A stretch of DNA of 54,063 nucleotides from a virus (lineage: Duplodnaviria > Heunggongvirae > Uroviricota > Caudoviricetes). Of this stretch, positions 6,886-54,063 are shown piece by piece. Positions within the stretch are counted from its first letter, which is position 1, and each line of letters starts with the position of its first letter. The DNA lies in IMG/VR virus record IMGVR_UViG_2861048470_000002; one strand, written 5' to 3'. Under the pieces are notes generated by a model. The model ran no database searches, was not told the origin of the DNA, and saw only the letters and a program-made list of their open reading frames with translations. Both the position numbers and the translations under genes were made by a program.

Positions 6886-7018
6886 TTTTTGGGACTCCTG
6901 GCTGATTAAGTATGTCGATAAGGCGTTTCCATCCGTCACGTAATTTACGGGTGATTCGTTCAAGTAAAGATTCGGAAGGGCAGCCAGCAACAGGCCACCC
7001 TGCAATGGCATATTGCAT
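6854..7018 (-). CDS. cIII: Lambda CIII (FtsH inhibitor), 54 aa
   Basis: Hand translation of the reverse strand gives [54 protein letters not shown]; below the ORF-track cutoff. Confidence 0.9.
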   Translation of the reverse strand: MQYAIAGWPVAGCPSESLLERITRKLRDGWKRLIDILNQPGVPKNGSNTYGYPD

Positions 7019-7090
7019 GGTGTGCTCCTTATTTATACATAACGAAAAACGCCTCGAGTGAAGCGTTATTGGTATGCGGTAACGCCGCGC

Positions 7091-9927: not shown

Positions 9928-12397
<2,470 letters not shown>

Positions 12398-15926: not shown

Positions 15927-17540
15927 TTATTTATTGGTGAGTACTACGTTCCATGGCAGGAGTTCGTCAACACGGTTGGAGGGCCATTCCGGCAGTACGC
16001 TCAGAATATGGCGCAGATACGCTTCCGGATCGATACCGTTCAGTCGGCAGGTGCCGATCAGCCCGTACAGCAGTGCTCCACGCTCGCCGCCGTGATCGCT
16101 ACCGAAGAACACGTAATTTTTCTTTCCGAGACAGACTGCACGAAGCGCTCTTTCCGCTGTGTTATTGTCCACCTCCGCCAGACCGTCATCACTGTAATAA
16201 CAGAGGGCGTCCCACTGATTCAGTACATAGCTGAACGCTTCGCCCAGTCTGGATTTTTTCGACAGCGTGCCATTCTTCTCCACCATCCATTCATGCAGCG
16301 ACGTCAGTAACGCTTTGCTTCGCTGCTGCCTGGCTGCAAGACGCTCTGACTCTGGTAATCCCCGTATTTCATTCTCGATGGCGTACAGTTCACTGATTCG
16401 CTTCAGGGCTTCTTCTGCCGTCGCACTTTTGCTGCTGATGTATACATCGTGGATTTTTCTCCGGGCATGAGCCCAGCACGCAACTTCTGTCAGCGCACTA
16501 CCTTCACGTTCTGCACTGAACAGCCTGTCATAACCTGTGAACGCATCCGCCTGCAGGATACCCCGGAAGGGGCGGAGGTGTTGCTCCGGGTGTTTCCCCT
16601 GCCGGTTCGATGAGTACGCGAACCAGACCGCCGGAGGAGATGACGAACCCGCATTGCGATCATCCCGGACATACGTCCAGATGCGCCCTGTTTTCGTCTT
16701 TTTCAGGCCCGGTGCCAGTACCTTTACCGGTGTGTCGTCAGTGTGAAGCTTGCGGGTATTCATCACATAACGGTACAGGGCATCATTCAGCGGCGTCATT
16801 AACTGGCAGCACGCGTCAACCCAGTTGGAGAGTAATGCACGGCTCAGTTCGACACCCTGTCGGGCAAAGATTTCACTCTGACGATACAGTGGCAGGTGTT
16901 CGCAGTATTTTCCCGTTAACACGCGGGCAAGTAATCCGGGGCCCGCGATACCACGCTCTATCGGGCGGGACGGCGCCGGTGCTTCAACGATGCAGTCACA
17001 TTTTGTACAGGCTTTTTTTACCCGTTCTGTGCGGATCACTTTCAGGGCGCTGCTCACCAGTTCCAGTTGTTCTGCGCTGACTTCCCCCAGATAATCCAGC
17101 TCACCGCCACACTCCGGGCAACAGCTTTCTTCAGGCTCCAGGCGGTATATTTCACGGGGGAGATGTGCCGGTAACGGACGACGATGGCGCGACTGTCGCA
17201 ACTGGCGGGGAACCAGTGGGTCATCCTCACGCCCACTGTAACGATCGCTTTCCTGCTCGCGTTGTTTCAGCAGGGCTTCAGCCTGTTCAACCTCACGACG
17301 CAGTTTTTCAGAACGGGTTCCGAACAGCATCCGGCGCAGTTTTTCTATCTGAGCCCGCAGATGCTCTATTTCTCGCTCATCTTCTTCGATCTTTTCTTCG
17401 GCACGTGCCAGTGCAGAGCGCAGGAAGGCCTCCGTCTCTTCAACCAGACTCAGTTGCTGGTCTTTCTGACGGAGGGCTTCAGCCTGCTCAGAGAGCAGCC
17501 TTTCCAGCTCAGCGATGCGAATGAGGTATTTCTGACTCAT
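15927..17540 (-). CDS. IS66-family transposase TnpC, 537 aa
   Basis: Coiled-coil N-terminus, CxxC...CxxC zinc motif, and conserved core typical of IS66 TnpC. Confidence 0.9.
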   Translation of the reverse strand: MSQKYLIRIAELERLLSEQAEALRQKDQQLSLVEETEAFLRSALARAEEKIEEDEREIEHLRAQIEKLRRMLFGTRSEKLRREVEQAEALLKQREQESDRYSGREDDPLVPRQLRQSRHRRPLPAHLPREIYRLEPEESCCPECGGELDYLGEVSAEQLELVSSALKVIRTERVKKACTKCDCIVEAPAPSRPIERGIAGPGLLARVLTGKYCEHLPLYRQSEIFARQGVELSRALLSNWVDACCQLMTPLNDALYRYVMNTRKLHTDDTPVKVLAPGLKKTKTGRIWTYVRDDRNAGSSSPPAVWFAYSSNRQGKHPEQHLRPFRGILQADAFTGYDRLFSAEREGSALTEVACWAHARRKIHDVYISSKSATAEEALKRISELYAIENEIRGLPESERLAARQQRSKALLTSLHEWMVEKNGTLSKKSRLGEAFSYVLNQWDALCYYSDDGLAEVDNNTAERALRAVCLGKKNYVFFGSDHGGERGALLYGLIGTCRLNGIDPEAYLRHILSVLPEWPSNRVDELLPWNVVLTNK

Positions 17541-20254: not shown

Positions 20255-21337
20255 TTAGAACTGGTAAACCATACCTACAGCAACGATATCATCGGTAGCA
20301 ACGCCAGATGCTTTCGTGAAATCGCTCTTATCAATCAGGTTGATTTTGTAGTCAACAAAAGTGGACATATTTTTGTTGAAGTAATAGGTTGCACCTACAT
20401 CAACATATTCAACCAGGTCCTGATCACCCCAAACACCCAAGTCTTTTCCTTTAGAATGCAGGTAAGCAACGGATGGACGCAGGCCGAAGTCGAACTGATA
20501 TTGTGCAACAGCTTCGAAGTTTTGTGCTTTGTTGGCAATATGGTTATTACCAAAAACAGTCATGTTCTGGGTTTCAGAATAGGTGGTAGCCAGATAGATG
20601 TTGTTCGCATCATATTTCAGACCAGCTGCCCATACTTCAGCATTTTGACCAGATGCATTCAGGCTGTTGTTACCGTAGATAACCTGATTATTAGTGCGGT
20701 CAGATTTAGCATAGGTTACACCTACACCGAATCCTTCATACTCATAAGTAGTGGAGAAACCGAAACCATCACCATTAGCTTCAGTTACGTCAGTGCGGTC
20801 ATTTTTACCCTGATACTGAGCAGCAAAGTTCAGACCATCAACCAGACCAAAGAAGTCATTGTTACGATAAGTTGCAACACCTGTGGTGCGACCAGTCATG
20901 AATACATCTGTTTGGGTCCAGGTATCGCCACCGAATTCTGGCAGAACGTCGGTCCATGCACCAATATCGTATGCTACACCGTAGTTACGGCCATAATCGA
21001 TGGAGCCGTAGTCACCGAATTTCAGGCCAGCGAAGGCAAGACGGGTTTTATCTTTGGAGGAACCTTGAGATTCAGCGCGGTTGCCTTTGAATTCATATTC
21101 CCACTGACCGAAACCAGTCAGTTGATCGTTGATTTGGGTTTCACCTTTGAAGCCAAGACGGGCATAAGTAGTATCACCATCATCTGCATCATTAGAGGAG
21201 AAGTAGTGCTTAGCATTAACTTTCCCGTACAGATCCAGCTTGTTACTGTCTTTATTATAAATTTCAGCTGCCTGAGCAGACATCGCCATCAGTACTGATG
21301 CAGCTACAGCAGAAATTGCCACTGTTAATTTTTTCAT
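20255..21337 (-). CDS. nmpC: Outer-membrane porin (OmpC/PhoE family; NmpC/OmpD-like), 360 aa, intact
   Basis: Signal peptide [23 protein letters not shown], porin body, C-terminal ...VAVGMVYQF; opposite strand between Q and the lysis genes. Confidence 0.93.
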
Positions 21338-21622
21338 CGTGAGCCCTTTTTTTGAACTATTATTAAAAAATGATGTCACTGCGCGATAAATATTCATCTA
21401 ATCAATGTGATTATTTCAAGATGTAAGTTTTGGTTTCTCATTTGATTTGTGAAGTAGATCTCTATTTTTATCTGAACTTTTTCTATCGAATCCTATTCAT
21501 GGCTCTTGGCTGAATAAAAATAAATCTATTAGCCAATTTATATTAATGGCTGTTATTTATAAGTGCTCTATAATTTGAAGATTCAATTTAAACCAGCTAA
21601 AAATAACGCTGGAAATTATTTG

Positions 21623-23864: not shown

Positions 23865-25436
23865 TTACTGAGAGCTCAGATCAACTTTCCAGGGCAACAG
23901 ATCGCGTACCCGGTTTGCCGGCCAGTCCTGGATATGTTCAATGACGTAACGCAGCCACTTTTCTGGCTCCACATTGTTCAGACGGCATGTGCCGATCAGC
24001 GAGTACAACACCGCCGCATGTTCACCACCGCTGTCGGAACCCGCGAACATCCAGTTTTTCCGGCCTACGGCCACTCCCCGTAAGGCGTTCTCTGCGATGT
24101 TGTTGTCGATTTCCACCCAGCCATTACTGCAGTACACGTTCAGTGCATCCCACTGTTTCAGCAGGTATGCGAACGCTTTTGCCGTATCTGAGTGACGCGA
24201 CAGTGTTTTCATCTGTTGCTGTATCCAGTCATACAGTGACTGCATCAGTGGCGCGGCTCTGGCTTTTCTTGCCGCCAGACGCTGTTCTGCTGAACAGCCC
24301 CGGACCTCTGCCTCGATGGCATACAGTTCACCGATACGCTGCAGGGCTTCCGTGGTGATGTAGGTGGGCGCTCTTGCATGCACATCGTGGATTTTTCTCC
24401 GGGCATGAGCCATACACGCGGCTTCCGTTATTCTGCCGGATTCGTATAACGCCCGGTAACCACCGTAAGCATCGGCCTGAAGCACACCGCTGTAACCGGC
24501 CAGGTGATTTTGTGGATGGATACCTTTCCGGTCCGGACTGTACGCGAACCAGACCGCCGGGGGCATCTGTGAACCGGCGTTACGGTCATCACGGACGTAG
24601 ACCCACAGCCGGGCTGTCCGGGTTTTACCGCTGCCCGGCTCCTGGACCGGGACGGGGATATCATCAGCATGGACTTTACCGGGCATCAGCACATACTGGC
24701 GCAGGACGTCATACAGCGGCTCCAGCAGTTCAGCAACAGCACCTGTCCAGCGCCCCAGTGTGGCACGGCTCAGCTCCACTCCCTGACGACGGTATATTTC
24801 TGACTGGCGGTATAACGGCAGATGGTCTGCATATTTCCCGGTGACAACATGGGCCAGAAGCCCCGCTCCGGCATAACTGCGTGCAATGGGTTTTGAAGGT
24901 ACTGGTGCCTGCACGATATGGTCGCACCGGCAACAGGCCTGTTTCGGACGTTGTGTTTCGATAACCTTAAAGGCGCTGCTGATAAGCTCCAGTTGCTCTG
25001 ACACATCACATCCCAGAGAACTGAGTTCACCACCACAGGCAGGACAGCATTCCTCTTCCGGCCGGATAACCCGGGTTTCACGGGGAAGTGAGGCCGGTAA
25101 CGGTTTACGGGCTGAAGACTGGCGCAGGGCGGATGGCAGTACCGGGTCATATTGCTCACCCAGCGTTTCCGCCATTTCTTCCTGAAGTGCGCTGATTCGC
25201 TCCTGTGCTTCCTGTATCTGCCGTTCGGTTTTTGCACGAAGTTTTTCTGAGCTTTTACCGAACTGCATACGTTGCAGTTTCGCAACCAGCGCCTTCAGCC
25301 GGTTGATTTCGGAAGCATAAGCCGCCACCCGCTGTGAGAGCAGGCGGTTGTATTCAGCCATCTGGCGGATGGTGTCCTGTTGCGTCTGCAACAGTGCCCG
25401 CAGGCGGGCGTTCTCATGAGCAAGTGAGGTGTCCAT
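23865..25436 (-). CDS. IS66-family transposase TnpC, 523 aa
   Basis: Homologous in layout and motifs to the other two TnpC copies but clearly a distinct sequence. Confidence 0.9.
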
Positions 25437-27336: not shown

Positions 27337-28875
27337 ATGAACGACATCTCTTCTGACGACATCTTCCTGCTGAAACAGCGCCTGGCCGAACAGGAAGCGC
27401 TGATCCACGCCCTGCAGGAAAAGCTGAGCAACCGGGAGCGCGAAATAGACCATCTGCAGGCGCAGCTGGATAAACTCCGCCGGATGAACTTCGGCAGTCG
27501 TTCCGAAAAAGTCTCCCGCCGTATCGCACAAATGGAAGCCGATCTGAACCGGCTTCAGAAAGAGAGCGATACGCTGACTGGTAGGGTGTATGACCCGGCT
27601 GTACAGCGTCCGTTGCGTCAGACCCGCACCCGTAAGCCGTTCCCTGAATCACTACCCCGTGACGAAAAGCGACTGTTGCCTGCGGCGCCGTGCTGCCCGA
27701 ACTGCGGCGGTTCACTGAGCTATCTGGGCGAGGATACCGCCGAACAGCTGGAGTTGATGCGTAGTGCCTTCCGGGTTATCCGGACGGTACGGGAAAAACA
27801 TGCCTGTACTCAGTGCGATGCCATCGTGCAGGCACCTGCACCTTCGCGGCCCATCGAGCGGGGTATCGCCGGACCGGGGCTGCTGGCCCGCGTGCTGACC
27901 TCGAAGTATGCAGAGCACACCCCGCTGTATCGCCAGTCAGAAATATACGGCCGGCAAGGTGTGGAGCTGAGCCGTTCACTGCTGTCGGGCTGGGTGGATG
28001 CATGCTGCCGGCTGCTGTCTCCGCTGGAAGAGGCGCTTCATGGCTATGTCATGACTGACGGCAAACTCCATGCCGATGATACCCCGGTCCAGGTACTGCT
28101 GCCGGGTAATAAGAAGACGAAGACCGGGCGGTTGTGGGCGTATGTTCGTGATGACCGCAATGCCGGGTCAGCGTTGGCACCTGCAGTGTGGTTCGCTTAC
28201 AGCCCGGACAGAAAAGGCATCCATCCGCAGACTCATCTTGCCTGCTTCAGCGGTGTGCTGCAAGCGGATGCGTACGCCGGGTTCAACGAGCTGTATCGCA
28301 ATGGTGGGATAACGGAAGCTGCCTGCTGGGCTCATGCCCGCCGAAAGATCCACGATGTGCACGTCCGCATCCCGTCAGCACTGACGGAAGAAGCCCTGGA
28401 GCAGATCGGTCAGTTGTACGCCATAGAGGCGGATATAAGGGGAATGCCGGCAGAGCAGCGGCTTGCTGAACGTCAGCGAAAAACGAAACCGCTGTTGAAA
28501 TCCCTGGAAAGCTGGTTGCGTGAAAAGATGAAAACCCTGTCGCGACACTCAGAACTGGCGAAAGCGTTCGCATACGCCCTGAACCAGTGGCCGGCGCTGA
28601 CGTACTATGCAGATGATGGCTGGGCTGAGGCGGACAATAACATCGCTGAAAATGCGTTGCGGATGGTCAGTCTGGGCCGCAAAAACTACCTGTTCTTCGG
28701 TTCGGATCATGGAGGAGAGCGGGGAGCGCTGCTGTACAGCCTGATCGGGACGTGCAAACTGAACGGAGTGGAGCCAGAAAGCTACCTCCGCTATGTCCTT
28801 GACGTCATAGCCGACTGGTCGATAAACCGGGTCGGCGAACTGCTCCCCTGGCGCGTAGCACTGCCGACTGAATAA
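27337..28875 (+). CDS. IS66-family transposase TnpC, 512 aa
   Basis: Coiled-coil N-terminus, zinc motif CPNCGG...CTQCD, conserved core. Confidence 0.9.
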
Positions 28876-45848: not shown

Positions 45849-48800
45849 ATGGGTAAAGGCAGCAGTAAGGGGCATACCCCGCGCGAAGCGAAAGATAACC
45901 TGAAGTCCACGCAGCTGCTGAGTGTGATCGATGCCATCAGCGAAGGGCCGGTTGAAGGTCCGGTGGATGGATTAAAAAGCGTGCTGCTGAACAGTACGCC
46001 GGTGCTGGACAGTGAGGGGAATACCAATATATCCGGCGTCACGGTGGTGTTCCGGGCCGGTGAGCAGGAGCAGACACCGCCGGAGGGATTTGAATCCTCC
46101 GGCTCCGAGACGGTGCTCGGTACAGAAGTGAAATATGACACGCCGATCACCCGGACCATCACGTCGGCAAACATTGACCGTCTGCGTTTTACTTTCGGCG
46201 TGCAGGCACTGGTGGAAACCACCTCAAAGGGGGACAGGAATCCATCGGAAGTCCGCCTGCTGGTTCAGATACAACGTAACGGTGGCTGGGTGACGGAAAA
46301 AGACATCACCATTAAGGGTAAAACCACTTCACAGTATCTGGCCTCGGTGGTGGTGGATAACCTGCCGCCGCGCCCGTTTAATATCCGGATGCGCAGGATG
46401 ACGCCGGACAGCACCACAGACCAGCTGCAGAACAAAACGCTCTGGTCGTCATACACCGAAATTATCGATGTGAAACAGTGCTACCCGAACACGGCACTGG
46501 TCGGCGTGCAGGTGGACTCGGAGCAGTTCGGCAGCCAGCAGGTGAGCCGTAATTATCATCTGCGCGGGCGTATTCTGCAGGTGCCGTCGAATTATAACCC
46601 GCAGACGCGGCAATACAGCGGTATCTGGGACGGAACGTTTAAACCGGCATACAGCAACAACCCGGCCTGGTGTCTGTGGGATATGCTGACCCATCCGCGC
46701 TACGGCATGGGGAAACGTCTTGGTGCGGTGGATGTGGATAAATGGGCGCTGTATCTTATCGGCCAGTACTGCGACCAGTCAGTGCCGGACGGCTTTGGCG
46801 GCACGGAGCCGCGCATCACCTGTAATGCCTGGCTGACCACACAGCGTAAGGCGTGGGATGTGCTCAGTGATTTCTGCTCTGCGATGCGCTGTATGCCGGT
46901 ATGGAACGGGCAGACGCTGACGTTCGTGCAGGACCGACCGTCGGATAAGGTGTGGACCTATAACCGCAGTAATGTGGTGATGCCGGATGATGGTGCGCCG
47001 TTCCGCTACAGCTTCAGCGCCCTGAAGGACCGCCATAATGCCGTTGAGGTGAACTGGATTGACCCGAATAACGGCTGGGAGACGGCGACAGAGCTTGTGG
47101 AGGACACGCAGGCCATTGCCCGTTACGGTCGTAACGTCACGAAGATGGATGCTTTTGGCTGTACCAGCCGGGGGCAGGCACACCGCGCCGGGCTGTGGCT
47201 GATTAAAACAGAACTGCTGGAAACGCAGACCGTGGACTTCAGCGTGGGTGCCGAAGGGCTTCGCCATGTACCGGGCGATGTCATTGAAATCTGCGATGAT
47301 GACTATGCCGGTATCCGCACCGGCGGGCGCGTGCTGGCGGTAAACAGCCAGACCCGGACGCTGACGCTCGACCGTGAAATCACGCTGCCATCTTCCGGCA
47401 CCACGCTGATAAGCCTGGTTGACGGGCAGGGGAGTCCGGTCAGCGTGGAGGTTCAGTCCGTCACCGACGGCGTGAAGGTGAAAGTGAGCCGTGTTCCTGA
47501 CGGCGTTGCTGAATACAGCGTATGGGGGCTGAAGCTGCCGACGTTGCGCCAGCGCCTGTTCCGCTGCGTGAGTATCCGTGAGAACGACGACGGCACGTAT
47601 GCCATCACCGCCGTGCAGCATGTACCGGAAAAAGAGGCCATCGTGGATAACGGGGCGCACTTTGACGGCGACCAGAGCGGCACGGTAAATGGTGTCACGC
47701 CGCCAGCGGTGCAGCACCTGACCGCAGAAGTCACCGCAGACAGCGGGGAGTATCAGGTGCTGGCGCGCTGGGACACGCCGAAGGTGGTGAAGGGCGTGAG
47801 CTTCCTGCTTCGCCTGACCGTGGCAGCGGATGACGGCCGTGAGCGGCTGGTCAGCACGGCCCGGACGACGGAAACCACTTACCGCTTCACACAACTGGCT
47901 CTGGGGAACTACAGGCTGACAGTCCGGGCAGTAAATGCGTGGGGGCAGCAGGGCGATCCGGCGTCGGTATCGTTCCGGATTGCCGCACCGGCAGCGCCGT
48001 CGCGGATTGAGCTGACGCCGGGCTATTTTCAGATAACCGCCACGCCGCATCTTGCGGTTTATGACCCGACGGTACAGTTTGAGTTCTGGTTCTCGGAAAA
48101 ACGGATTGCGGATATCAGGCAGGTTGAAACCAGCGCGCGTTATCTTGGTACGGCACTGTACTGGATAGCCGCCAGTATCAATATCAAACCGGGCCATGAT
48201 TATTATTTTTACGTTCGCAGTGTGAACACCGTTGGCAAATCGGCATTCGTGGAGGCTGTCGATCAGCCGAGTGATGATGCATCAGGCTATCTGGATTTTT
48301 TCAAAGGCGAGATAGGGAAAACCCATCTGGCTCAGGAGCTGTGGACGCAGATTGATAACGGTCAGCTTGCGCCTGACCTGACTGAAATCAGGACGTCCAT
48401 AACGGATGTCAGCAATGAAATAACACAGACCGTCAATAAGAAACTGGAAGACCAGAGTGCAGCGATCCAGCAGATACAGAAGGTTCAGGTTGATACAAAT
48501 AATAACCTGAACAGCATGTGGGCAGTGAAGCTGCAGCAGATGCAGGACGGACGCCTTTATATTGCGGGTATCGGTGCCGGTATTGAGAACACCCCTGACG
48601 GCATGCAGAGTCAGGTGCTGCTGGCAGCAGACAGGATTGCGATGATTAATCCTGCGAATGGCAACACAAAGCCGATGTTTGTTGGTCAGGGCGATCAGAT
48701 ATTCATGAATGAAGTGTTCCTGAAACGCCTGACGGCCCCCACCATTACCAGCGGCGGTAATCCTCCGGCATTTTCCCTGACATCAGACGGGAGACTGACG

Positions 48801-49346
48801 GCGAAAAATGCGGATATCAGTGGCAGTGTGAATGCGAACTCAGGAACGCTCAACAATGTCACGATTAACCAGAACTGTACGATTAAGGGCATGCTGGAGG
48901 CGACCCAGGTCAGAGGAGATTTCGTTAAAGCTGTATCAAAAGCCTTCCCGAAAAAAGTCGGTACGTGGGGTAACACGGAAACACCAAACGGTACGGTTAC
49001 AGTCACCATCAGCGATGATCATAACTTTGACCGCCAGATTATTATTCCGCCCATTATTTTTAACGGTATAGCGTATGACGATCCGGGGAGCGGAAATAAC
49101 CCAGGAGGCACGCGATACACGGGTTATGGTTTTGAAGTTCGCAAAAACGGCGTATTAATCGCATCCAGAGAAACTAAAGGGGCCATTCCCGGTAGTTACA
49201 GTGCAGTTATTGATATGCCGAGTGGCAGGGGAAGCGTCACTCTGGAGTTTAAGATTTTCCAGAAAGGCAATCAGGGGGCAGGCAATATCACCGACTGTAC
49301 GGTGATTGTGACCAAAAAAGCCGCTTCCGGCATCAGTATTCGTTGA
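45849..49346 (+). CDS. J: Central tail fibre / host-specificity protein J, 1165 aa, with a C-terminal region that differs from lambda J as I recall it
   Basis: [54 protein letters not shown] is lambda-J-like for about 950 residues, then diverges. Confidence 0.95.
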
Positions 49347-49416: not shown

Positions 49417-50016
49417 ATGCGTAAAGTTTGTGCAGCAATTTTGTCCGCAGCCATTTGTCTGGCCGTATCCGGTGCGCCTGCATGGGCGTCTGAACATCAG
49501 TCCACGCTGAGCGCGGGGTATCTTCATGCCTCGACGAACGTTCCCGGCAGTGATGATCTGAACGGGATTAACGTGAAATACCGTTATGAGTTTACGGACA
49601 CACTGGGGCTGGAGACGTCGTTCAGCTATGCAGGAGACAAGAATCGCCAGCTGACCCGTTACAGCGATACCCGCTGGCATGAAGATTCCGTTCGTAACCG
49701 CTGGTTCAGCGTAATGGCGGGGCCGTCTGTGCGCGTGAATGAATGGTTCAGCGCGTATGCGATGGCGGGTGTGGCTTACAGCCGTGTGTCGACTTTCTCC
49801 GGGGATTATCTTCGCGTAACTGACAACAAGGGGAAAAAGCACGATGTGCTGACCGGAAGTGATGACGGTCGCCACAGCAACACGTCTCTGGCGTGGGGGG
49901 CTGGCGTGCAGTTTAACCCGACCGAATCCGTGGCCATTGATATTGCTTATGAAGGCTCCGGCAGTGGTGACTGGCGCACTGACGGGTTCATCGTGGGTGT
50001 TGGTTATAAATTCTGA
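49417..50016 (+). CDS. lom: Lom outer-membrane protein (Ail/PagC/OmpX family), 199 aa
   Basis: Signal peptide MRKVCAAILSAAICLAVSGAPAWA and C-terminal ...VAIDIAYEGSGSGDWRTDGFIVGVGYKF as in lambda Lom. Confidence 0.93.
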   Translation: MRKVCAAILSAAICLAVSGAPAWASEHQSTLSAGYLHASTNVPGSDDLNGINVKYRYEFTDTLGLETSFSYAGDKNRQLTRYSDTRWHEDSVRNRWFSVMAGPSVRVNEWFSAYAMAGVAYSRVSTFSGDYLRVTDNKGKKHDVLTGSDDGRHSNTSLAWGAGVQFNPTESVAIDIAYEGSGSGDWRTDGFIVGVGYKF

Positions 50017-50042: not shown

Positions 50043-50070
50043 AGCCCGCCGGTTCAGGCGGGCTTTTTTG
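50043..50070 (+). terminator. Rho-independent terminator (AGCCCGCC GGTTCA GGCGGGCT then TTTTTT) after lom
   Basis: Perfect 8-bp stem plus T-run. Confidence 0.8.
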
Positions 50071-50074
50071 TGGG

Positions 50075-53000
50075 GTGAATATGGCAGTAAAGATTTCAGG
50101 TGTACTGAAAGACGGCACAGGAAAACCGGTACAGAACTGCACAATCCAGCTGAAAGCAAAACGTAACAGTACCACGGTGGTGGTGAACACGCTGGCCTCA
50201 GAAAATCCGGATGAAGCCGGGCGTTACAGTATGGACGTTGAGTACGGTCAGTACAGCGTTATTCTGTTGGTGGAAGGATTCCCGCCGTCACATGCCGGGA
50301 CCATCACAGTGTATGAAGATTCCCGACCCGGTACGCTGAATGATTTTCTCGGTGCCATGACGGAGGATGATGCCCGTCCGGAGGCACTGCGCCGTTTTGA
50401 GCTGATGGTGGAAGAGGTGGCGCGTAACGCGTCCGTGGTGGCACAGAACACGGCAGCCGCAAAGAAGTCAGCCAGTGATGCCGGCACATCTGCCAGTGAG
50501 GCGGCAACCCATGCGACTGATGCTGCAGGCTCAGCACGCGCAGCCAGCACGTCAGCCGGACAGGCCGCGTCGTCGGCTCAGTCAGCATCTTCCAGCGCAG
50601 GAACGGCATCAACAAAGGCCAGTGAAGCATCGAAAAGTGCTGCTGCTGCAGAGTCCTCAAAAAGCGCGGCAGCTACCAGTGCCGCTGCGGCGAAAACGTC
50701 AGAAACGAATGCGGCAGCGTCACAACAATCAGCAGCCACTTCTGCATCCGCCGCGACCACGAAGGCGTCAGAAGCAGCCACCTCAGCCCGGGATGCGGCG
50801 GTCTCAAAAGAGGCAGCGAAATCATCAGAAACGAACGCATCATCAAGCGCCAGTAGTGCCGCTTCCTCGGCAACGGCGGCAGGCAATTCCGCGAAGGCGG
50901 CAAAAACGTCTGAGACAAACGCCAGGTCTTCTGAAACGGCAGCGGGACAGAGCGCCTCGGCTGCGGCAGGCTCAAAAACAGCGGCTGCGTCGTCTGCCAG
51001 TGCCGCGTCAACAAGTGCCGGGCAGGCCTCAGCCAGTGCCACCGCCGCCGGAAAATCGGCAGAAAGTGCCGCATCGTCTGCTTCAACAGCCACAACGAAG
51101 GCTGGCGAAGCCACTGAACAGGCCAGCGCAGCAGCGAGGTCTGCTTCCGCAGCGAAGACATCCGAGACGAACGCGAAAGCGTCGGAAACCAGCGCAGAAT
51201 CCTCAAAAACGGCTGCCGCATCGTCCGCCAGTTCGGCGGCGTCATCGGCATCATCGGCGTCTGCTTCAAAAGATGAGGCGACCAGACAAGCGTCCGCAGC
51301 GAAGGGCAGCGCCACGACAGCATCCACGAAGGCGACAGAGGCAGCTGGCAGTGCGACGGCGGCAGCACAGAGCAAAAGTACGGCGGAATCCGCGGCAACG
51401 CGCGCCGAGACAGCGGCAAAACGGGCAGAGGATATTGCATCCGCCGTGGCGCTTGAGGATGCAAGTACGACGAAAAAGGGGATAGTACAGCTCAGCAGTG
51501 CGACCAACAGTACGTCTGAAACGCTGGCGGCAACGCCAAAGGCAGTAAAATCAGCCTATGACAATGCAGAGAAACGTCTGCAGAAAGACCAGAACGGCGC
51601 TGATATACCCGATAAGGGACGCTTCCTGAACAACATTAACGCGGTCAGTAAAACAGACTTTGCTGATAAGCGTGGTATGCGTTATGTGCGGGTTAACGCT
51701 CCTGCAGGTGCAACATCTGGAAAATATTACCCTGTTGTTGTTATGCGTTCTGCTGGCTCAGTAAGCGAACTGGCATCAAGGGTCATTATCACCACGGCAA
51801 CGCGAACCGCAGGCGATCCGATGAATAACTGCGAGTTTAACGGATTTGTTATGCCTGGTGGCTGGACTGACAGGGGGCGTTATGCTTATGGAATGTTCTG
51901 GCAATATCAAAACAATGAACGAGCCATCCACTCAATAATGATGAGTAATAAGGGCGATGATTTGCGCTCTGTGTTCTATGTTGATGGCGCTGCTTTCCCT
52001 GTTTTTGCGTTTATCGAAGATGGCCTGTCAATATCCGCACCTGGTGCTGATCTCGTTGTTAATGATACGACCTATAAGTTTGGGGCAACAAATCCGGCGA
52101 CTGAATGTATCGCGGCGGACGTTATCCTTGATTTTAAGAGTGGGCGTGGTTTTTATGAGTCTCATTCGTTAATCGTTAACGATAACTTGTCGTGCAAAAA
52201 ACTTTTTGCCACAGACGAAATTGTAGCGCGTGGTGGTAATCAGATTCGAATGATAGGTGGGGAGTATGGGGCATTATGGCGTAATGATGGCGCTAAAACT
52301 TACCTGCTGCTTACCAATCAAGGTGATGTTTATGGTGGCTGGAATACATTAAGACCGTTTGCTATTGATAACGCAACCGGCGAACTGGTTATTGGAACCA
52401 AACTGTCCGCAAGTCTGAACGGTAATGCATTAACAGCAACAAAGCTGCAAACGCCAAGACGGGTTTCTGGTGTTGAGTTTGATGGTTCCAAAGATATTAC
52501 TTTAACCGCCGCGCATGTGGCTGCTTTTGCCAGAAGGGCAACGGATACATATGCCGATGCGGATGGTGGCGTTCCCTGGAATGCCGAATCAGGCGCTTAT
52601 AATGTCACCCGCTCTGGCGACAGCTATATTCTGGTTAACTTCTATACCGGAGTCGGAAGTTGCCGGACCTTGCAGATGAAGGCGCATTACAGAAATGGTG
52701 GTCTGTTCTACCGTTCTTCAAGAGACGGTTATGGTTTTGAGGAAGACTGGGCAGAAGTTTATACCTCGAAAAATCTTCCACCAGAAAGCTACCCAGTCGG
52801 CGCACCAATCCCGTGGCCATCAGATACCGTTCCGTCTGGTTATGCCCTGATGCAGGGGCAGACTTTTGACAAATCTGCCTACCCGAAACTTGCAGCCGCT
52901 TATCCGTCAGGCGTGATCCCTGATATGCGTGGCTGGACGATTAAGGGCAAGCCCGCCAGTGGTCGTGCCGTATTGTCTCAGGAACAGGACGGCATAAAAT

Positions 53001-53479
53001 CGCATACCCACAGCGCCAGCGCATCCAGTACTGATTTGGGGACGAAAACCACATCGTCGTTTGATTACGGCACTAAATCCACGAATAACACTGGTGCGCA
53101 TACCCATAGTTTAAGTGGCAGCACGAATGCAGCTGGTAATCACAGCCATAGAGATGGCCGTCGATTTAACCCCAGTGTTTTTAAAGATACTTATCAATAT
53201 GGTTATACAAGCTCAGGTCAAAATACCTGGGGTGTACAAGGCTCAGTAGGTATGTCTACGGGGGCGTTAGCTAATACCAGTACAGATGGTAACCATAGCC
53301 ACTCACTGTCCGGCACAGCAGCATCTGCAGGTGCACACGCACATACTGTCGGTATTGGTGCACACACGCACTCCGTTGCGATTGGTTCACATGGACACAC
53401 CATCACCGTTAACGCTGCTGGTAACGCGGAAAACACCGTCAAAAACATCGCATTTAACTATATTGTGAGGCTTGCATAA
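50075..53479 (+). CDS. stf: Side tail fibre Stf, full length 1134 aa, with a long Ala/Ser-rich low-complexity central region and His-rich C-terminal repeats
   Basis: N-terminus [62 protein letters not shown] matches lambda Stf; uninterrupted ORF through to the tfa start. Confidence 0.93.
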
Positions 53480-54063
53480 TGGCATTCAGAATGAGTGAAC
53501 AACCACGGACCATAAAAATTTATAATCTGCTGGCCGGAACTAATGAATTTATTGGTGAAGGTGACGCATATATTCCGCCTCATACAGGTCTGCCAGCAAA
53601 CAGTACCGATATTGCACCGCCAGATATTCCGGCTGGCTTTGTGGCTGTTTTCAACAGTGATGAGGCATCGTGGCATCTCGTTGAAGATCATCGGGGAAAA
53701 ACCGTCTATGACGTGGCTTCCGGCGACGCGTTATTTATTTCTGAACTTGGCTCGTTACCGGAAAATGTCACCTGGTTATCGCCGGAAGGGGAATATCAGA
53801 AGTGGAACGGCACAGCCTGGGTGAAGGATACGGAAGCAGAAAAACTGTTCCGGATCCGGGAGGCGGAAGAAACAAAAAACAGCCTGATGCAGGTAGCCAG
53901 TGAGCATATAGCGCCACTTCAGGATGCTGTAGATCTGGAGATCGCAACGGAGGAAGAAACCTCATTGCTGGAAGCCTGGAAAAAATATCGGGTGTTGCTG
54001 AACCGTGTTAATACAACAACTGCACCGGATATTGAATGGCCAACAGTACCCATTATCGAATAG
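53479..54063 (+). CDS. tfa: Tail fibre assembly protein Tfa, 194 aa
   Basis: [73 protein letters not shown] matches lambda Tfa; stop codon is the last triplet of the window. Confidence 0.95.

Follow-up and report, generated by a model that had tools for sequence, protein, structure and literature searches.

The analysed stretch of DNA (hereafter the window) is the IMG/VR virus record IMGVR_UViG_2861048470_000002 of 54,063 nucleotides (nt), and the element in question is stf, a long open reading frame (ORF) on its plus strand at 50081-53479. From sequence comparisons we conclude that this ORF very probably encodes a StfR-variant side tail fibre of a lambda-like prophage, which is located at the lambda attachment region of the Escherichia coli chromosome. 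The preliminary description of the window had proposed a full-length side tail fibre, and this identity is supported. Judged by its sequence, the product is a StfR-type fibre and not a lambda Stf restored, since it shares 94% amino acid (aa) identity with StfR of E. coli K-12 and carries about 410 aa of modules resembling Mu gpS and T4 gp34.

Integrity, limits and location of stf

The ORF listing gives an uninterrupted plus-strand ORF at 50075-53479, i.e. 1134 codons counted from a GTG, which agrees with the length given previously, and a translation that begins at the in-frame ATG (50081) has 1132 residues and one terminal stop. A frameshift or stop, which had been named as the finding that would speak against a full-length fibre, was found neither in the ORF listing nor in the translation nor in the alignment with homologues. 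The ATG at 50081 is likely to be the start codon rather than the GTG at 50075, since a Shine-Dalgarno-like GGGG run lies 5 nt upstream of the ATG and contains the GTG, the RefSeq protein WP_071607502.1 (3399-nt coding sequence (CDS)) uses the same start, lambda orf-401 opens with the identical MAVKISG, and the solved N-terminal chain of Ur-lambda Stf (PDB 9E7M) begins there. The span 50450-53420, to which the fibre had been assigned, lies inside stf but does not represent the gene limits; fixing these limits and the start codon is of value for annotation. The gene and the features within it are as follows.

50081..53479, plus strand: stf, encoding a side tail fibre of the StfR type (1132 aa and a stop; 1134 aa if the alternative GTG at 50075 is the start)
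50081..50482, plus strand: N-terminal tail-attachment (collar) domain, residues 1-134 (PF08400, E = 1.6e-71)
50381..51451, plus strand: predicted proximal rod of 51 uninterrupted heptads, residues 101-457, pattern x-S-A-x-x-A-x
51464..51586, plus strand: conserved tail-fibre repeat motif (Phage_fiber_2), residues 462-502 (PF03406, E = 1.2e-21)
51644..52066, plus strand: fibre segment, residues 522-662, with weak internal similarity to the next module only
52067..52411, plus strand: T4 gp34/Mu gpS-like trimerisation module, residues 663-777 (PF21446, E = 3.4e-27)
52517..52801, plus strand: Mu gpS'-like/gp37_C-like module, residues 813-907 (PDB 8JU3 residues 322-415; PF12604, E = 7e-6)
52799..52942, plus strand: collar domain at the start of the tip, residues 907-954 (PF07484, E = 6.9e-12; aligned to PDB 2XGF)
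53003..53149, plus strand: predicted ascending needle strand with three HxH motifs (H975/977, H1007/1009, H1021/1023) and one FDYGTK repeat
53150..53293, plus strand: variable head cassette of 48 aa (residues 1024-1071), located between the two needle strands
53294..53476, plus strand: predicted descending needle strand with four HxH motifs (1072, 1086, 1095, 1104), 27-nt GIGAHxHxV repeat units and the conserved C-terminus

The window opens with a ybhC-like pectinesterase gene of the host followed by a lambda-type integrase (1-2489), further contains a CI-like repressor and lambda-like late genes up to J, lom, stf and tfa, and terminates exactly at the tfa stop codon at 54063. In strain 120899, a prophage with an identical stf adjoins bioA, which marks the lambda attachment region, and at the identical locus of enterotoxigenic E. 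coli (ETEC) a diguanylate cyclase gene, a ybhB-family gene and bioA are found downstream of tfa.

Domain architecture in comparison with known fibres

The attachment domain of the lambdoid Stf family (PF08400) is present over its full length, and residues 1-94 match Ur-lambda StfN, solved by electron cryo-microscopy (PDB 9E7M), with E = 2e-51 and 87 of 94 positions identical; for Ur-lambda, the function of this domain in tail attachment has been described (PMC12617516). The protein shares two further traits of this family: its gene is located after J and lom with an overlapping tfa, and a long proximal coiled-coil rod can be recognised at the level of the sequence. With the StfR (Rac-type) subfamily it is collinear over the full length, including the Mu S/gp34-like middle.

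Among the closest known systems is StfR of K-12 (b1372, 1120 aa), which is encoded by the cryptic Rac prophage and whose identity to the 1132 aa of the window protein extends from end to end. Both proteins have the same domain order, i.e. PF08400, 51 heptads, Phage_fiber_2, the gp34/Mu S-like modules and a gp37-type tip with seven HxH motifs, and both genes are followed by a tfa gene, with 94% identity between the window Tfa and TfaR. The only substantial difference is the head cassette, which comprises 36 unrelated aa in K-12 StfR compared to 48 aa here, so that the two do not have the same receptor-specificity head. The prophages also differ in their sites, with ybhC/bioA next to the window prophage and Rac inserted at ttcC.

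In laboratory lambda (PaPa) the gene is divided into orf-401 and orf-314, as had been stated. We rebuilt Ur-lambda Stf (774 aa) by joining both parts at the known frameshift prior to the alignment. Only residues 1-303 and 409-490 (orf-401, about 71%) and residues 903-1132 (orf-314, 71%) of the window protein align (BLASTP identities). The two fibres have in common the collar domain, the coiled-coil rod, Phage_fiber_2, the gp37-type tip and the position after lom, and their Tfa proteins are 94% identical. The window protein is 358 aa longer, and its approximately 410 aa of Mu S/gp34-like modules replace lambda residues ~395-545, which are shorter and unrelated.

Within the middle region, the Phage_fiber_2 motif (residues 462-502) is also present in Mu gpS and in Stf of lambda. 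Residues 91-172 of Mu gpS (PDB 5YVQ/8JU3) align with residues 441-521 of the window protein, and its residues 706-778 align with T4 gp34 (PDB 4UXE/5NXF) as well as with Mu S (5YVQ). The similarity to Mu gpS/gpS' and T4 gp34 is restricted to local modules (residues 441-521, 706-778 and 813-907), whereas the N-terminus, the rod and the tip are unrelated to these proteins. A sequence search of the PDB with residues 499-710 returned just the short Mu S motif, and a search of stf against NCBIfam gave no match. An AlphaFold2 single-sequence model of residues 520-905 was unusable (predicted local distance difference test 37, predicted template modelling score 0.24), which is to be expected for an obligate trimer.

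The Ala/Ser-rich region forms a register of 51 heptads

The centre of the protein had been described as Ala/Ser/Thr-rich, low-complexity sequence. Its composition is indeed as described, with a fraction of A+S+T of 0.70-0.80 in 50-residue segments across residues 151-450, and the GC content of the Ala/Ser region amounts to 62% compared to 48% elsewhere in stf. The term low complexity, however, understates a strict repeat, which is not disordered filler: the repeat-unit analysis of this segment revealed 51 heptads in a single register from residue 101 to 457. Ala occupies position 6 of the heptad in 47 of the 51 units (Val or Phe in the others) and position 3 in 35/51, Ser occupies position 2 in 37/51, and the rod is devoid of Pro, Trp, Tyr and Cys. 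For residues 105-462, the Fourier spectrum of Ala has its peaks at periods of exactly 3.5 (power 43) and 7.0 residues (power 18), as opposed to maxima of 8.7 and 7.2 in 2000 shuffles. Positions 3 and 6 show the a/d spacing of a coiled coil. For Ur-lambda Stf, cryo-electron microscopy and tomography have assigned residues 1-91 to the collar, which is followed by a linker, and residues 102-393 to a proximal trimeric coiled coil (PMC12617516).

The alignment of the rod with that of lambda contains a gap of exactly 105 residues, which equals 15 heptads. Among the 120 best homologues of a large protein search, 102 of which have an identical rod length and only four of which are informative variants, we found one deletion of 28 residues (4 heptads) and three 3-residue insertions or deletions (indels), which is a small sample of close homologues; a 3-residue indel exchanges a and d and retains the 3.5-residue periodicity. 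The former low-complexity centre is now read as a heptad rod which changes its length in whole heptads. With 0.148 nm per residue, the rod (357 residues) would measure about 53 nm in length, i.e. about 15 nm more than that of lambda. Tandem Repeats Finder identified just one repeat (9 nt x 2.4) between 50000 and 53500, from which it follows that the heptad periodicity exists at the protein level and does not represent a recent tandem array of DNA. The DNA of the rod contains short diverged repeats only, with spacings that are mostly multiples of 21 nt.

The receptor-binding tip and its head cassette

Residues 902-1132 align with the tip of T4 gp37 (PDB 2XGF, E = 5e-85), and all of the seven HxH motifs (residues 975, 1007, 1021, 1072, 1086, 1095 and 1104), which comprise 14 of the 20 His of the protein, align with the seven iron-binding motifs of T4. 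The repeated H-x-H motifs at the C-terminus, from which a tip of the metal-binding type had been suggested, are hence confirmed, the four motifs quoted at that time being the last four of the seven. In T4, each HxH motif, contributed by three chains, coordinates one iron ion (summarised in PMC11705849); by analogy, each site in this tip would also be expected to coordinate Fe(II) octahedrally through six His. The order of a collar followed by HxH motifs aligned to 2XGF, with a variable cassette between the needle strands, is that of the T4 gp37/lambda Stf tip family. The collar, the seven HxH motifs and the C-terminus are common to T4 gp37 and the window protein, whereas the head cassette is unrelated (34 aa compared to 48 aa) and T4 gp37 outside the tip is not homologous to this fibre. 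T4 uses gp38, assisted by gp57A, where the window phage has Tfa (PMC9659904).

A comparison of nine tips revealed five unrelated cassettes with conserved flanks. By its position and variability, the 48-aa cassette is presumed to be the determinant of receptor specificity; a variable specificity insert of 30-70 aa has been described for the T4/lambda family of receptor-binding proteins (PMC9659904). The same cassette occurs in the lambdoid phages PhiR26_1, PhiR42_1, mEp460 and Kati and, with 87% identity, in gp37 of phage P896 (87-99% for PhiR26_1, mEp460 and P896). In addition, it is present in 1142 of 5426 complete E. coli genomes, as determined with a 160-nt query. The lambda and T4 members of the side-fibre tip family target porins, OmpC being established for these two cassettes only (PMC12617516); since the head cassette differs from that of lambda, OmpC specificity is not to be assumed here. 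With respect to host range, the cassette at 53150-53293 is the part to examine, and it could be useful for the engineering of chimeric lambda Stf fibres.

Within the cassette, residue 1062 is Ala (GCG, 53264-53266), while Trp is found at this position in all sampled phages with the same cassette, encoded by TGG in PhiR34_1 and PhiR26_1 and present also in P896; the two codons differ in two adjacent bases. The 160-nt query matched 134 E. coli genome records with at least 99% identity and about 1008 with 95-99%, so that up to about 134 genome records appear to share the Ala1062 allele. One might speculate that Ala1062 marks a switch of receptor specificity or a loss of binding within one of the most frequent prophage tip types of E. 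coli and that, together with the porin gene of the prophage (see below), it is linked to receptor remodelling or superinfection exclusion, which we consider improbable.

Two further observations were made on the tips. The 48-aa cassette is located on the Stf of a lambdoid siphophage (53150-53293) and also on gp37 of P896, a 170-kb T-even myophage (Gaprivervirus; locus L010, 711-3899), with which only the tip is shared, at 75% identity over its whole length. Here, a tip has clearly been exchanged between phages of unrelated types. Furthermore, the number of HxH motifs in the descending strand (4 or 5) co-varies among the nine tips with the number of FDYGTK repeats in the ascending strand (1 or 2). 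Eight HxH motifs together with two FDYGTK repeats are found in lambda and P896, compared to seven and one in the window protein, K-12 StfR and T4. This is consistent with a needle whose length alters by one matched rung, the longer form being present in two of the nine tips only.

Proposed fibre

Stf of Ur-lambda forms trimers, of which four are present per virion, and accelerates adsorption (PMC12617516). By homology, three chains of the window protein would constitute one fibre, which clamps onto the junction between tail tube and tip with its N-terminal domain (residues 1-94). The 51-heptad Ala/Ser coiled coil would then form a thin and rigid proximal rod, followed by a hinge and a distal shaft of presumably beta-structured Mu gpS/T4 gp34-like modules. 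The last 230 residues are predicted to fold into a T4 gp37-type tip, consisting of the collar, a six-stranded needle and a small head. The needle may be stapled by metal ions, each held by the six His of three HxH motifs, and the 48-aa cassette of the head would contact a receptor in the outer membrane of the host. Folding of the tip would depend on the downstream Tfa chaperone. Such a fibre could provide a fast and reversible first contact, which raises the chance that J reaches its own receptor.

Nothing contradicts the assignment as a side tail fibre, although four points weigh against the proposed reading. In the literature on the PhiR and mEp phages which share the fibre, no receptor data were found. 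Residues 522-662 gave no confident match to a family or structure. The exchange at residue 1062 could weaken or alter binding. Finally, the prophage may be disrupted or defective, since it contains three IS66-family transposase genes, and the fibre is perhaps never assembled in this strain.

Alternative explanations

Three additional long ORFs overlap with the rod in other frames, all within 50475..51507:

50475-51485, plus strand: overlapping ORF
50578-51507, minus strand: overlapping ORF, 309 aa
50673-51464, minus strand: overlapping ORF

It appears extremely improbable that one of them, e.g. the antisense ORF of 309 aa, is a genuine gene in addition to stf. Codons of the type NCN (Ala GCN, Ser TCN, Thr ACN) make up 65% of the heptad region, in which the frames +1, -1 and -2 contain one stop each, compared to about 8-10 expected from base composition. 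Frames +1 and -1 remain equally open when the order of the codons is shuffled or synonymous codons are permuted, and are therefore explained by codon content alone, but the same permutations predict 7.5-8.6 stops in frame -2, where one was observed (P ~0.0005). This deficit would favour a second gene, as would the similar antisense ORFs annotated in lambda (orf206b) and phi458 (Orf45). However, avoidance of CTA across codon junctions is a general property of the window: an NCT codon is followed by A in 1 of 29 cases in the heptad region, and the remaining genes of the window together contain 67 such junctions compared to 163 expected (ratio 0.41). The window-wide odds are 0.33 for CTA and 0.25 for TAG, and CTAG occurs 7 times, where 210 occurrences are expected from base composition. 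Corrected for this avoidance, the expectation for frame -2 decreases to about 3 stops. In addition, 52 of 91 differences from lambda and 33 of 45 differences from K-12 fall on third codon positions of the sense frame, and the synonymous rate is not reduced. Based on the control with the other genes and on the codon positions, the antisense ORF was rejected as a gene, and we therefore regard the overlapping ORFs as artefacts of composition. The earlier attribution of these ORFs to the coding composition thus suffices for two of the three frames, while the third also requires the avoidance of CTA/TAG. It is likewise very improbable, if slightly less so, that the Ala/Ser/Thr-rich stretch itself is a disordered low-complexity linker. 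The A+S+T content of up to 0.80 and a core of Ala/Ser instead of the Leu/Ile/Val of classical coiled coils would be in line with disorder; against this stand the unbroken register over 357 residues without Pro, indels that keep the 3.5-residue periodicity, and the homologous segment of lambda, for which imaging and modelling gave a rigid trimeric coiled coil (PMC12617516).

The alternative to which we attach more weight, although we still consider it unlikely, is that stf is an inert remnant in a defective prophage, comparable to stfR in Rac, and serves only as a reservoir of tail-fibre modules for recombination with lambdoid phages that infect the cell. The transposase genes mentioned above and the location of K-12 StfR in a cryptic prophage would fit this view, and recombination between lambda and stfR/tfaR of Rac has been reported at a frequency of about 2e-6 (PMC3945230). 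A remnant is, however, difficult to reconcile with a complete ORF, with third-position substitutions relative to K-12 and lambda that point to purifying selection, with a 99%-identical Stf in the isolated, plaque-forming phage PhiR34_1, and with the complete set of head and tail genes upstream of stf.

Antisense ORFs within the heptad region have been annotated elsewhere, namely lambda orf206b (J02459; locus L002, 1998-2618, minus strand) and phi458 Orf45, a hypothetical protein (locus L009, 3998-4735, minus strand). Both are probably artefacts of composition as well, and for users of GenBank such antisense ORFs inside the heptad region are to be read as consequences of codon composition. The annotation of phi458 lacks a single stf CDS that spans the heptad region.

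Distribution of stf

Seven complete E. coli genomes, mostly of human ETEC, contain an annotated prophage gene (WP_071607502.1) with 100% nucleotide identity to stf, and matches cover at least 80% of stf in 1230 of the 5426 complete E. coli genomes. Among isolated phages, PhiR34_1 and Kati share 99.0% and 98.4% nucleotide identity over the whole gene, which is annotated as a side tail fibre. A large protein search with the N-terminal 500 residues returned 5318 relatives (E ≤ 1e-20), most of which bear the name "prophage tail fiber N-terminal domain-containing protein". The gene is hence already known: RefSeq contains identical proteins, good descriptions of the family exist, and structures of its modules have been solved. 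As one of the commonest prophage genes of E. coli, stf is an ordinary feature, and its importance beyond a correct annotation is small.

Surroundings of stf in the prophage

The order of the late genes is J (45849-49346), lom (49417-50016), stf (50081-53479) and tfa (53479-54063), which is identical to that of lambda. Two features directly flank stf:

50043..50069, plus strand: terminator-like hairpin (50043-50064) with T-run, after lom and directly upstream of stf, closing lom
53479..54063, plus strand: tfa, tail-fibre assembly chaperone, 194 aa (PF02413, E = 1.2e-43)

The hairpin has an 8-bp stem with seven GC pairs, which is followed by TTTTTGTGGG, and the start of tfa shares 1 nt with the stop of stf. 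The J tail-tip protein (45849-49346, plus strand) has 1165 aa compared to 1132 aa in lambda, and LamB specificity is not to be assumed.

Elsewhere in the prophage, the three IS66-family transposase ORFs are located at 15927-17540 (minus strand, 537 aa), 23865-25436 (minus strand, 523 aa) and 27337-28875 (plus strand, 512 aa), and an ORF of the rve-integrase type is found at 10537-11559. The prophage also carries a Gram-negative porin gene at 20255-21397 (minus strand, 380 aa; Porin_1, E = 3e-152). Among RNA families, Rfam Lambda_thermo, the cIII thermoregulator, was matched at 6973-7031 (minus strand, 88.5 bits), which is expected for a lambda-like early region, and Rfam IS009 (RF02111) gave a full-length match at 53822-54020 (plus strand, 225 bits, gathering score 117), which lies wholly within the tfa CDS.

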